From Candidatus Iainarchaeum sp. (GTDB lineage Archaea; Iainarchaeota; Iainarchaeia; Iainarchaeales; JAZDEL01): a stretch of 32,000 nt of DNA. Positions 4,889 through 7,463 of the stretch are shown here, in pieces. Numbering within the stretch: the stretch's first letter is position 1; every line of letters begins with the position of its first letter. A program made the position numbers and the translations under genes. The stretch spans positions 210,001 to 242,000 of the forward strand of contig JAZDEL010000002.1 of assembly GCA_043808785.1 (NCBI GenBank). Direction: 5' to 3'. A model generated the notes under the pieces. The model made no database searches, had not been told where the DNA came from, and saw only the letters and a list, made by a program, of their open reading frames with translations.

Positions 4889-6103
4889 TTAGGGCATTTG
4901 CTCCGAAGCCGGCTCCTCATTTTTCCCCTGCTGCTCCTCAGCCCCGCGCCTGTGCAGGAGTTTATCCTTTATCTTTCCCCCGCCCTTCACAACCCTTTCC
5001 TTAATCTTTCCGCCGCCGCTGACAACGCCTTGCCTTATCCTGCCCCCTCCCCCCGCAAACTTACCTTTTATTTTTTCGCCGAGGTGCGCGTCAGCAACCC
5101 TTTTCCTTAATTTTCCGCCCCCCTCCTTTATTTTTGCGCCTATGCCTTTCCCCGGCACCTTCAGCACAGTCTCCTTTATTTTCCCGCCGATTTTCCCCTT
5201 TGTAACGGTTTTCCTCGTGGCATACCTTAAGCCGCGGACAATCTCCATCCTCCTCAGAGGGTCGTCGACCTTTTCATAAACCCCTTTCCTTATCTCCCTC
5301 ACAAGCGGGCCGCTCCATATCACGTTGCCCCTGTGCCGGAGTTCCTCGAGGAAAGAGGCATTGTCAATCGCATCGCGCTGGCACCTGAGTTTCAGTATCC
5401 CTGTGCCAACGCGGTCGGCGCTGTGCGCATCGCTCCCTGCAACAACAAACCTCGCCTTGTCCCCGAGTTCTATGGCATTGGCGCACCTTTTTATTATGTC
5501 AAAGCTCTGCTCGTCCACCTTCCTCTTCACGCTGCCGGTAATCTTCCCTATGAATACCTTCCTCGCAACCCTGTTCTTCTCCATGAAATCCAGGAAACCC
5601 CTCGGGGCGTTTATCCACTTGGAATCGTAAATGAAATTGCTCAGGTTGCCTATCATTCCGTTGTAAACCTCGACACCTATATGCTCCCTTATCACAAGGT
5701 TCTCGACGTTCTTCAGGCCGTAAAGGTAGCCTGCGCTGTCGTAGTTGAAGCCCCAGGGATGTGAGAGCGCAATCAGCACATCGCCCCTCCTGCTCGCCGC
5801 AATTATTGTTTCAAGGCTCACCTTTTCCCCGAGCAGTTCCGCGCGCTCGAACATTTCCGCATCTTTTCCGTAAGCAAGCATATGCCCGTATTCGGTGTTC
5901 ATCTCTATTCCGGGGATAAGCAGGACGCCCTCCGGCTTTGTTTCAAGAAGTTTCCTGTAGGATTCCGCGGGGTTCAAATCCGCGTGCTCCGTTATTGCCA
6001 CGCCGTCAAGCCCCACGCTTTTTACCCGCTCCCAGAATTTTTCGGGCTTAACCTTCTGCTCCGCAATGTGCGTGTGCAGGTCGAATGTGAATACGCGCGC
6101 CAT
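4889..6103 (-). CDS. PHP-domain metal-dependent phosphoesterase with a Gly/Lys-repeat C-terminal tail
   Basis: MARVFTFDLHTHIAE ... ITEHAD ... SHPWG ... GSDAHS are PHP motifs. The TATA ATTTATAA (6127-6134) is about 27 nt upstream of ATG 6103. The longer ORF reaching 6220 is probably an over-extension. Confidence 0.65.
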   Translation of the reverse strand: MARVFTFDLHTHIAEQKVKPEKFWERVKSVGLDGVAITEHADLNPAESYRKLLETKPEGVLLIPGIEMNTEYGHMLAYGKDAEMFERAELLGEKVSLETIIAASRRGDVLIALSHPWGFNYDSAGYLYGLKNVENLVIREHIGVEVYNGMIGNLSNFIYDSKWINAPRGFLDFMEKNRVARKVFIGKITGSVKRKVDEQSFDIIKRCANAIELGDKARFVVAGSDAHSADRVGTGILKLRCQRDAIDNASFLEELRHRGNVIWSGPLVREIRKGVYEKVDDPLRRMEIVRGLRYATRKTVTKGKIGGKIKETVLKVPGKGIGAKIKEGGGKLRKRVADAHLGEKIKGKFAGGGGRIRQGVVSGGGKIKERVVKGGGKIKDKLLHRRGAEEQQGKNEEPASEQMP

Positions 6104-6200
6104 AGTAGACTTAACCATGCTCCGCCTTATAAATTTTTTCGCGTGCGGTTTTGGCATGTTTATAAGCAAATTCTGGCATGCCAGCGTGAAATCCGAAACC

Positions 6201-6210
6201 TTTATAAATA
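6201..6210. promoter_or_regulatory. TATA box (TTTATAAATA)
   Basis: Centred about 29 nt upstream of ATG 6234. Confidence 0.4.
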
Positions 6211-6233
6211 ACCTGAGCATTTCTCTTCACAGT

Positions 6234-6536
6234 ATGGATGGGAATTCTGCCTATGCAGAAAGTCCCGCTTCCCAAGCCTTATCTGCCAAGGAGAGGGAAA
6301 TCTACGGGATAGTGTTGGAGAGCTGGCCTACCAGCGCGCTCGGCGTAGCGGAGCATTTCCGCGTTCCGATGCACACGCGCGAGGCAAAGAAGCAGGCATC
6401 GACAAAATACGCCTACTATCTTCACAAGCTCGTCGCGCGCAGGCTGCTGGTTTCGAAGCGCATAGGCAACGCGCTAGTTGTCTGGCCGCTGCACACCGAA
6501 AAATACCGCACAATACACAGCATACTTAAGGAGTGA
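6234..6536 (+). CDS. Small winged-helix-like protein
   Basis: 100 aa. LSAKEREIYGIVLESWPTSALGVAEHF ... YYLHKLVARRLLVSKRIGNALVVWP has a wHTH-like pattern. Confidence 0.4.
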   Translation: MDGNSAYAESPASQALSAKEREIYGIVLESWPTSALGVAEHFRVPMHTREAKKQASTKYAYYLHKLVARRLLVSKRIGNALVVWPLHTEKYRTIHSILKE

Positions 6537-6736
6537 TTCTTGGAAACAAAAAACAGGTTCAAATAAAATAAACAAAAACCGGGTTTGCATGGTTTTTGCC
6601 AAGAGGCCGTGCAAAGCCGAAGCCGGCAGTGTGCCGGAGAAATTCACGAGGAGGGATATGTAAAAGATGCTCAACAACTTTTTCTTACAAAGAAAAGGCT
6701 GGCGAAAAGAACAGTCCGCTTGCGCGGACAGGGTTG

Positions 6737-6907
6737 GTGTTGCACCTGCTTAACACCTTCTATGACAAATTCATCTTCACGGGCGGCCTGAAGTACGCGC
6801 ACAACAACAGCCTTTTCGGAGCGCGGGGTTGTGCGCAACCCCGCTTCCAAAAGCCTGGGGAAAACCGCACTAAAAATTCACGTGCGGGAGGTGCCGCGCT
6901 TGCTTAA
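6737..6907 (+). CDS. Short ORF carrying a second copy of the V4R-protein N-terminal 21-aa motif (truncated paralogue or upstream ORF)
   Basis: It encodes (V)LHLLNTFYDKFIFTGGLKYAHNN and then an unrelated 33 aa. Its TAA (6905-6907) overlaps the TTG/SD region of the next gene. The start codon is uncertain. Confidence 0.3.
   Translation: MLHLLNTFYDKFIFTGGLKYAHNNSLFGARGCAQPRFQKPGENRTKNSRAGGAALA
6748..6808 (+). repeat. Copy 1 of a 61-nt direct repeat (coding LLNTFYDKFIFTGGLKYAHNN)
   Basis: It matches 6902-6962. Including the leucine codon that starts 2 nt upstream (CTG 6746-6748 vs TTG 6900-6902), the two copies differ in eight codons, all synonymous (seven third-position changes, one first-position). 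Confidence 0.85.
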
Positions 6908-7463
6908 TACATTTTATGACAAATTCATCTTCACGGGCGGGCTAAAATACGCGCATAACAACTTCTACCTAATGAACCTGCCTTTCCTGATAATGCCGCT
7001 CGAGCTCCTTTCAGGGCTTGCTGCAAGGCAGGACCAGCACCTGGACCTTGAAATTTATTACTGCTCGAAGTATTCGACCCTGAGCGGCCTGCTTAAGCAG
7101 TTCGACCTCGATTTCGGCCTGCACGACGAAAAGGCGCTGCAGGTTGTCGAGGAATTCTTCACCGCCTCGGGCTGGGGGCTTATCGAGCACCTCGACAGGG
7201 ACGACGCGAACAAGCGCGCGATAGTTGTTGTGAAGGATTCGCCGATTGCGCACGCCCTGCACGGCAAGGTGAAATTTCCCGTCGACCATTTCCTGCGCGG
7301 CGTTTTCGCAGGCCTGTTCTCGCAGGTCTTCAAGGCGGATATGGAGTGCGTCGAAAGCAAGTGCCTAGCGCTCAATGAGGAGAGCTGCCACTTCGTGGTA
7401 AAGCAGGCGAACGAGTTTGATTTTTCAAAGAAGGAAGTGAGGAGGCAGCTGCGCGTGGATTGA
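6900..7463 (+). CDS. V4R (4-vinyl reductase-like) small-molecule-binding domain protein
   Basis: FFTASGWGLIEH ... VVVKDSPIAHAL ... FLRGVFAGLFSQVF ... ESKCLALNEESCHFVV is the typical V4R layout. A GGAGGTG SD lies 6 nt before TTG 6900. GTG 6891 is an alternative start. Confidence 0.6.
   Translation: MLNTFYDKFIFTGGLKYAHNNFYLMNLPFLIMPLELLSGLAARQDQHLDLEIYYCSKYSTLSGLLKQFDLDFGLHDEKALQVVEEFFTASGWGLIEHLDRDDANKRAIVVVKDSPIAHALHGKVKFPVDHFLRGVFAGLFSQVFKADMECVESKCLALNEESCHFVVKQANEFDFSKKEVRRQLRVD
6902..6962 (+). repeat. Copy 2 of the 61-nt direct repeat
   Basis: See copy 1. This copy forms the N-terminus of the full-length V4R protein. Confidence 0.85.

Follow-up and report, generated by a model that had tools for sequence, protein, structure and literature searches.

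A V4R gene start duplicated around a dispersed hairpin cassette in a Diapherotrites genome

Some inserted DNA restores the end of the gene that it enters. In Escherichia coli K-12, insertion of e14 restores the end of the target gene icd, which remains functional, and the displaced icdC fragment differs mostly by silent or conservative changes (PMC13626634); a comparable restoration is proposed here for an archaeal V4R-domain gene. The SXT/R391 integrative conjugative elements insert at the 5' end of prfC (PMC2791158). These elements are ~100 kb long, depend on an integrase and use a single dedicated attB. Work by Hochhut and Waldor in 1999 reportedly found that SXT supplies both a new promoter and a new N-terminal coding sequence at prfC.

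Other described systems share single aspects of the V4R locus. REP/BIME, MITE-like and RPE sequences are short, dispersed, protein-less palindromes with covarying stems, as is the cassette described below (PMC3733652, PMC10969869). RPEs are tolerated inside coding regions (PMC3733652, PMC10969869), and the cassette at the V4R start is likewise stop-free in six frames, as are the four youngest copies of the family. The ATGA, GTGA and TAATG overlaps found here are also known from natural pairs of translationally coupled genes in archaea and bacteria (PMC6728339, PMC10666635). In Haloferax and E. coli, termination-reinitiation has been found experimentally to depend on overlaps of this kind, and a distance of ~20 nt nearly eliminates it (PMC10666635; PMC6728339).

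The V4R locus appears to combine events known from these systems: a palindromic repeat has been inserted, and restoration of a gene end and coupling of stop to start are proposed. A limited literature search found no description of such an architecture. The locus lies in a 32,000-nt stretch of DNA (the window) from a Diapherotrites (DPANN) genome of 1.42 Mb, assembled in 10 contigs and 93% complete; the assignment to Candidatus Diapherotrites comes from the names of homologues in databases. It differs from e14, a 15-kb prophage that carries an integrase and enters the 3' end of its target, in that the inserts are 77–130 nt long, are protein-less and affect the 5' end, including the Shine-Dalgarno sequence (SD) and the start codon. 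The displaced fragment, moreover, forms an ORF ahead of the gene, on a shared transcript. Compared with SXT, the protein-less hairpin cassettes are found at several unrelated genes and at different codons. An element-encoded recombinase of the e14/SXT type is absent from the V4R insert, which at 6809–6885 has no room for one.

The V4R-domain gene (Pfam PF02830) occupies 6900–7463 on the plus strand and encodes 187 aa. Database homologues of the protein are 86% (P0002) and 70% (P0003) identical to it. The beginning of the gene is present twice. A repeat search of the window by nucleotide similarity, which used no peptide filter, found that 6736–6808 and 6890–6962 form a 73-nt direct repeat with 85% identity and a spacing of 154 nt. 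The first-pass annotation had described a 61-nt duplication, and both of its cores (6748–6808 and 6902–6962) sit inside this longer repeat. Copy 1 (arm A, 6732–6808, plus strand) holds 21 V4R codons of a displaced start, and copy 2 (arm B, 6886–6962, plus strand) holds the first 21 codons of the working gene. Both encode the peptide LLNTFYDKFIFTGGLKYAHNN. Eight of the 21 shared codons differ, and all eight differences are silent (seven third-position changes plus CTG/TTG); each of the eight that the annotation had listed is present. Three more differences fall in the 10 nt 5' of the coding part. Copy 2 has the SD GGAGGTG (6887–6893) and a TTG start at 6900, and copy 1 has a weakened SD (GGTTGGTG) and a CTG at the start-codon position. 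TTG 6900 is the true start, because the conserved M/L/V-LN-F-D(K/R) motif begins at the equivalent codon in all 19 aligned orthologues from the same order.

Copy 1 ends on its right at the very base that opens cassette 1, a 58-nt dispersed hairpin element (6808–6865, plus strand) of which a DNA search finds about 15–17 copies in the host genome. The basal stem of the cassette is conserved and its apical stem (6823–6844) varies between copies; the tail GGGGAAAAC follows. The apical stem is the perfect 9-bp hairpin that had been noted earlier within codons unrelated to V4R; the hairpin stands, and what had been missed is that it belongs to a dispersed repeat element. The basal stem and a purine-rich tail are common to all copies, and the apical stems vary yet still pair. 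Across 17 copies (~17 is also the count for the element as a whole) from the host genome and a second family of its order, pairing is preserved at 5 of the 16 stem pairs although both bases have changed. Within a subfamily the copies are 95–100% identical. The closest relatives of cassette 1 are a copy that is 100% identical (C2:205619–205676), another with a single mismatch and another at 95%. Many dispersed, near-identical short hairpin copies are thus present, as in MITE/REP-like families. Among 196 genomes, the exact basal-stem motif has matches only in the host genome and in four genomes of one other family, and Rfam holds no family matching cassette 1.

Next to cassette 1 is a small hairpin of 5 bp with an 11-nt loop (6866–6886, plus strand), at a place where other cassette copies have a GC hairpin. 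The whole insert (6809–6885, 77 nt) is too small for a gene and encodes nothing, and no trace of V4R codons 22 onward is found 3' of cassette 1. Unlike RPEs, the insert is not in frame within a protein; the gene start is duplicated instead. The flanking repeats vary by locus (27, 31, 35, ~53 and 73–77 nt), so that there is no fixed target-site duplication, whereas elements of the REP and MITE kind have fixed flanks of 2–10 nt or, in the case of REP, none. Seven cassette copies have a tRNA gene 0–4 nt away, and flanking repeats are undetectable at the tRNA-adjacent copies. A further difference from REP/MITE systems is that no RAYT/Y1 transposase was found: PF01797, the transposase family searched for, has no match in the 93% complete host genome. 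No reverse transcriptase was found there, and only two solo TnpB-like genes were. The genome does contain six tyrosine-recombinase-like genes, none linked to the V4R locus. Two of them have a tRNA gene about 0.5–0.6 kb away or closer, another is ~2.5 kb from a cassette-carrying tRNA gene, and it is possible that such recombinases act on the cassette in trans.

The region in front of copy 1 appears to record earlier events of the same kind. The upstream gene is a 156-aa ORF with no Pfam match (6066–6536, plus strand) that ends ...EKYRTIHSILKE with its stop codon at 6534–6536. In several relatives V4R starts 0–15 nt after this gene; the gap in the host is 364 nt. This leader is a stack of two, possibly three, nested start-plus-cassette units. 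The candidate for the most upstream unit is copy 0 (6640–6678, plus strand), which is preceded by an older hairpin module (6582–6637, plus strand; arms 6582–6592 and 6607–6618, then a GC hairpin at 6623–6637). Copy 0 has the motif AAATTCACG at 6640–6648, which recurs at 6874–6882, an SD (GAGGAGGG) at 6648–6655, and ATG CTC AAC AAC (MLNN) at 6667–6678. Its leader aligns with the copy 2 leader better than 300 of 300 shuffles, and with this moderate support copy 0 is probably a third and oldest displaced start. It runs into cassette 2 (6678–6729, plus strand), a second cassette type composed of an AT-rich mini-hairpin (6678–6697), the purine tail GCTGGCGAAAAG (6698–6709) and a GC hairpin (6714–6729). 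Copies of cassette 2 elsewhere in the genome are 94–97% identical, and several are near tRNA genes. Upstream ORF 0 (6667–6753, plus strand; 28 codons) passes through cassette 2 and stops at TAA 6751–6753, on the CTGCTTAAC of copy 1. Two other resemblances were rejected, one of the copy 0 and copy 2 leaders to the 3' end of the upstream gene (P = 0.27–0.78 by shuffles) and one of the copy 2 SD-spacer to copy B of a V4R orthologue from another family (genome G018; score 21 against 20 for the next orthologue, not distinctive).

The same layout recurs at other loci, where an old SD, start and some number of codons are followed by a hairpin insert and then by a new SD, start and the whole gene. In an EndoQ-like PHP gene of the host genome (C2:133545–133394, minus strand), the SD, the ATG and 4.7 codons (~35 nt) are repeated around a cassette of the cassette 1 type plus a small hairpin, with one silent difference and a TAATG junction. 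In a RibH-like gene (C4:180036/179863, minus strand), the SD, the ATG and 10.7 codons are repeated around a different hairpin, with an ATGA junction; here 7 of 10 third positions differ with zero residue changes. The G018 V4R orthologue repeats 13 codons around three hairpins, with five silent differences, one non-silent difference and an 8-nt overlap. Its copy A retains TGATG coupling to the upstream gene, and the non-silent change in that copy hits an Asp that is invariant in a six-sequence alignment and in all 19 orthologues. An EndoQ-like orthologue from a third family (genome G009) repeats 10 codons with a 74-nt period around a mini-hairpin, with two silent differences, one Tyr/Phe difference and a GTGA junction. 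At the 3' end of a gene, a perfect 27-nt repeat accompanies a long cassette variant (C1:195710–195895) with no differences. In a further genome (G107), a same-type cassette lies ~30 nt 5' of the EndoQ-like start, and that start is not duplicated.

In all five cassette-bearing loci the arm homology ends exactly at the edges of the insert. A screen of orthologue starts found an upstream self-copy in 4 of 73, compared with 0 in downstream control regions. Start duplications without an insert also occur in the host genome, where the SD, the start and the first codons are repeated in tandem over 41–44 nt at genes beginning MKGKGTP (3 silent and 0 non-silent differences), MVASAL (three units) and MNRFC. 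In a genome of the same genus (G001), the sequence ahead of the RibH-like and MVASAL genes is conserved and each gene has only one start; these duplications are therefore lineage-specific. The V4R and EndoQ-like start duplications in the two other families are independent events. The same-genus contig ends inside its V4R gene, and neither the EndoQ-like gene nor the gene upstream of V4R was found in that genome.

The stop codons of the displaced ORFs have a consistent position. Upstream ORF 1 (6737–6907, plus strand), 56 codons from GTG 6737, leads from copy 1 through cassette 1 and the spacer to TAA 6905–6907 on the V4R start, an overlap with TTG 6900 already recognized in the first-pass annotation. 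In 7 of 7 loci examined, the upstream ORF stops between an 8-nt overlap and 4 nt before the real start. The overlaps are of the classical types ATGA (RibH-like, MKGKGTP), GTGA (G009) and TAATG (EndoQ-like); those of V4R and G018 are 8 nt and non-classical, being neither 4 nor 1. The earlier suggestion of a coupled upstream ORF fits this stop-on-start geometry, which is found at every comparable locus. The upstream ORF probably hands ribosomes on to the V4R start, so that the displaced start would head a short ORF that is translated through the hairpins and ends on the true start. V4R itself would then be expressed by termination-reinitiation, from its own SD, or by both routes. ORF 1, the proposed relay, would need GTG 6737 or TTG 6740 as its start codon, or else a supply of ribosomes from ORF 0; its translation is uncertain because copy 1 has a CTG and a weakened SD. 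In native coupled pairs the upstream partner is a gene, whereas here it is the cut-off start of the same gene. The V4R and G018 cases also differ from known termination-reinitiation coupling in their 8-nt overlap, and coupling at these loci is a prediction from sequence.

Several tests address the silent-only divergence of the arms. In simulations, eight random substitutions in copy 1 would all be silent with P < 5e-5, and four would be with P = 0.007. Under neutral drift of copy 1, the probability of at most one change at its 42 first and second positions is 0.004. When six loci are pooled, 25 of 60 third positions differ (42%), compared with 3 of 120 first and second positions (2.5%), in a set that is biased because part of the loci were found with a peptide filter. 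The neutral expectation for upstream arms is ~21% at first and second positions, against which the observed 3 of 120 gives P = 4e-9. The displaced starts have therefore not decayed neutrally. These statistics (0.004 for V4R and 4e-9 for the pool) agree with the original proposal that selection at the peptide level shaped both copies. Two loci, MVASAL and MNRFC, are less clean, their upstream copies having decayed non-synonymously after codons 5–6. Statistically, the restriction of the V4R differences to silent sites is clear; the causes considered below are proposals.

Two readings of these data survive. Common to both is the core conclusion, held with considerable confidence, that a hairpin cassette was inserted into the V4R start and that this start is duplicated. 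On balance the evidence leans slightly toward a replacement start borne by the cassette, with the old start kept as a relay ORF. The upstream copy sits at the expected position of the ancestral start, as is directly visible at the G018 V4R and RibH-like loci. The cassette would most likely have brought the downstream arm along, as a replacement gene start taken from a related lineage. The two arms would then never have been a decaying duplicate pair, which would account for their differing silently only, and an imported downstream arm would mean that both arms had been shaped inside functional genes.

Separate ancestry of the arms, with the downstream arm imported, is a distinct part of this proposal, and its probability falls a little short of balance. 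Cassette 1 is 98–100% identical to other copies, and the arms around it differ at 33% of silent sites. Copy 1 shares the codon style of the gene and copy 2 does not: GC3 is 0.86 in copy 1, 0.76 in the gene body and 0.57 in copy 2. The lower GC3 extends over codons 1–42 (0.57–0.62, compared with 0.76 in the remainder). The 5' ends of genes are often AT-richer anyway, so this is not decisive for an imported patch. In the RibH-like gene, copy A lies in the ancestral context and is nearer the outgroup, matching G001 at 5 of 7 differing sites where copy B matches at 1, a comparison that gives no more than weak polarity, because G001 is near silent-site saturation (0.47–0.49 in both genes flanking the RibH-like gene). 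The RibH-like locus shows no mosaic signal relative to this nearly saturated outgroup. In G018, copy A is the one coupled to the upstream gene. Against separate ancestry, the 77-nt insert encodes nothing and no donor sequence was found. We know of no mechanism that places a carried gene fragment at a homologous site. The perfect 27-nt repeat and the insert-free 41–44-nt tandems also resemble duplications made in place, and the non-synonymous decay at MVASAL and MNRFC is a further point against the replacement-start reading.

A generalization of the replacement-start reading can be offered tentatively, as a conjecture that is more doubtful than the local one. In DPANN genomes, protein-less miniature cassettes would bring a synonymous replacement SD, start and N-terminus, convert the native start to a relay ORF and spread between lineages. 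Such cassettes may carry a replacement segment from their previous host into the first codons of conserved genes.

The second surviving reading, which is rather unlikely, is that cassette insertion copied 27–77 nt of target on both sides and that purifying selection then kept the N-terminal peptide of the relay. The copying could have occurred through a very long target duplication or through microhomology-mediated repair, and the arms would have been identical at first. In its favour are the perfect 27-nt flanking repeat at C1:195710 and an arm divergence that is graded across loci (0%, 13%, 13%, 18% and 23%). The coincidence of arm homology with the cassette edges at every locus is expected of such copying, and Ala18 is common to both V4R arms and absent from the nearest relatives. 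The loss of the family-invariant Asp from G018 copy A is what a slowly decaying copy would show. On the other hand, there is no known reason for a relay peptide to keep its exact N-terminus while silent changes reach up to 7 of 10 third positions. Ageing in place predicts similar decay of cassette and arms, but the cassette is 100% identical to another copy and the arms have diverged at 33% of silent sites. Silent divergence between the RibH-like arms A and B (7 of 10) equals or exceeds their divergence from the duplication-free gene of G001. Finally, selection on the translation of copy 1 is not easily squared with the loss of its start codon.

An improbable alternative is that the start was first duplicated in tandem, by slippage or flap misprocessing, as a neutral change because the downstream copy was intact, and that the cassette landed later between the copies. 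This order of events would account for a young cassette between old arms. The insert-free 41–44-nt tandems of the host genome (MKGKGTP, MVASAL in three units, MNRFC) are precedents for it, and they are absent from the same-genus relative where this could be checked. A cassette that landed later and at random should, however, be followed on its right by a remainder of arm A, and none of the five loci shows this. The lack of traceable codons 22 onward after cassette 1 counts against it as well, and the silent-only divergence would go unexplained.

An assembly artefact, in which the V4R start alleles of two strains became fused at the repeated cassette, is very improbable. A multi-copy cassette could tangle the assembly graph, the organism is uncultivated, and the same-genus assembly breaks inside the V4R gene. 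The junctions, however, require real reads that join unique sequence to the cassette, and the same architecture is found at unique sequences, both at several loci within the 10 contigs of the host and in independent assemblies from other families.

The first-pass annotation had also considered a truncated V4R paralogue, or the remnant of a full upstream paralogue that was mostly deleted, and this explanation is barely credible: silent-only differences are expected of two functional paralogues, but at least five orthologous loci have a single V4R gene within a few nt of the '...EKYRTIH.IL' gene, the copy 1 edge is the first base of the cassette, and the same course of events, each time with a hairpin cassette at the junction, would have to be assumed for three unrelated genes. 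The proposed comparison with relatives for a tandem V4R pair was run, and no nearly identical tandem copy was found in any of them; relatives have one orthologue beside the upstream gene, other nearby V4R matches are 22–35% identical, and the host genome lacks another close V4R copy.

Four further mechanisms were rejected. A diversity-generating retroelement is contradicted by differences that are not at adenines and by the failure to find a reverse transcriptase. An archaeal BHB intron does not fit a stem with C.C mismatches 5 bp apart, in place of two 3-nt bulges 4 bp apart, and ribosomal bypass of 154 nt does not fit the lack of both a stop after copy 1 and matching motifs; the insert-free tandem cases could use neither. 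A GC-to-AT burst in copy 2 fits V4R (7 of 8 changes) but not the RibH-like gene, where 4 of 7 changes are transversions without direction.

If the replacement-start reading is true, extremely compact genomes tolerate mobile hairpin repeats in essential coding sequence because the start is present in two copies, the older of which serves again as a relay for ribosomes. For annotation, upstream ORFs that mimic a gene start in this way should then not be called genes or N-terminal extensions. The paired arms would also be a naturally occurring test, in archaea, of how termination-reinitiation copes with stable structure. If the arms are separate in ancestry, the cassettes would mark very short-patch gene flow between uncultivated lineages. 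If the wider class of DPANN cassettes is real, it would represent a new mode of gene-start turnover together with horizontal micro-transfer.

At seven sites in the genome, a cassette copy is separated from a tRNA gene by no more than 0-4 nt. Five of these copies sit just past the tRNA 3' end in the same orientation (C2:38956, C9:34260, C9:38807(-), C9:50652(-) and C10:180345), and two lie antisense just ahead of the tRNA 5' end (C2:261848(-) and C3:50173). At C9:95279-95623, a perfect 41-nt direct repeat begins on the last base of tRNA-Pro. Each repeat unit consists of a mini-hairpin with a GGCGAAAG tail, and the 263 nt between the units are dense with further hairpin modules. ARAGORN predicts introns in about 26 of the 50 tRNA genes that it calls across the whole genome; several are very long (538, 1106 and 1242 nt), calls that may be unreliable.

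Six tyrosine-recombinase-like genes are present in this 1.4-Mb genome, at C1:33166, C10:231104, C4:124476, C2:262501 and C5:38230, with an Xer-like match at C6:65312. The match at C2:262501 is preceded by tRNA-Ala (261908-261995), which a cassette flanks on its other side; tRNA-Cys lies about 0.6 kb before the match at C4:124476, and a cassette adjoining tRNA-Leu is about 2.5 kb from that at C1:33166. These genes may belong to integrated elements and may be a source of a recombinase acting in trans.

Cassettes also accompany protein-coding genes. The PHP-family protein encoded at C2:132121-133407 (minus strand; 428 aa, N-terminus MREYNCDLHFHG) is presumably similar to archaeal endonuclease Q. 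G107 belongs to a different family of this order; there a cassette sharing the same basal stem lies about 30 nt upstream of the EndoQ-like orthologue (loci L101 and L035, contig C19, about 2563-2650), whose start is unduplicated. The same gene is therefore cassette-bearing in three families, those of G000, G009 and G107. At C10:205855-205983, an ATG and the opening codons of a 611-aa membrane protein (MVASAL...) are present in each of three tandem 44-nt units. Its counterpart in the same-genus genome G001 has one start only, downstream of a conserved promoter-like CAGCGCAACCCTTTTAAAC. The V4R orthologue of G018 (locus L025, contig C16), also with a duplicated start, has its reading frame interrupted by a TAG past approximately residue 144. 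This could mark a pseudogene or a split gene, or stem from a sequencing error.

Stop codons are absent from all six frames of the four cassette copies that are youngest (for example, window 6808-6865 and C2:205619-205676, C2:38956-39013 and C2:133455-133512), and other subfamilies contain one or two stops at most. A stop-free cassette would permit ribosomes to pass through it at any landing site.
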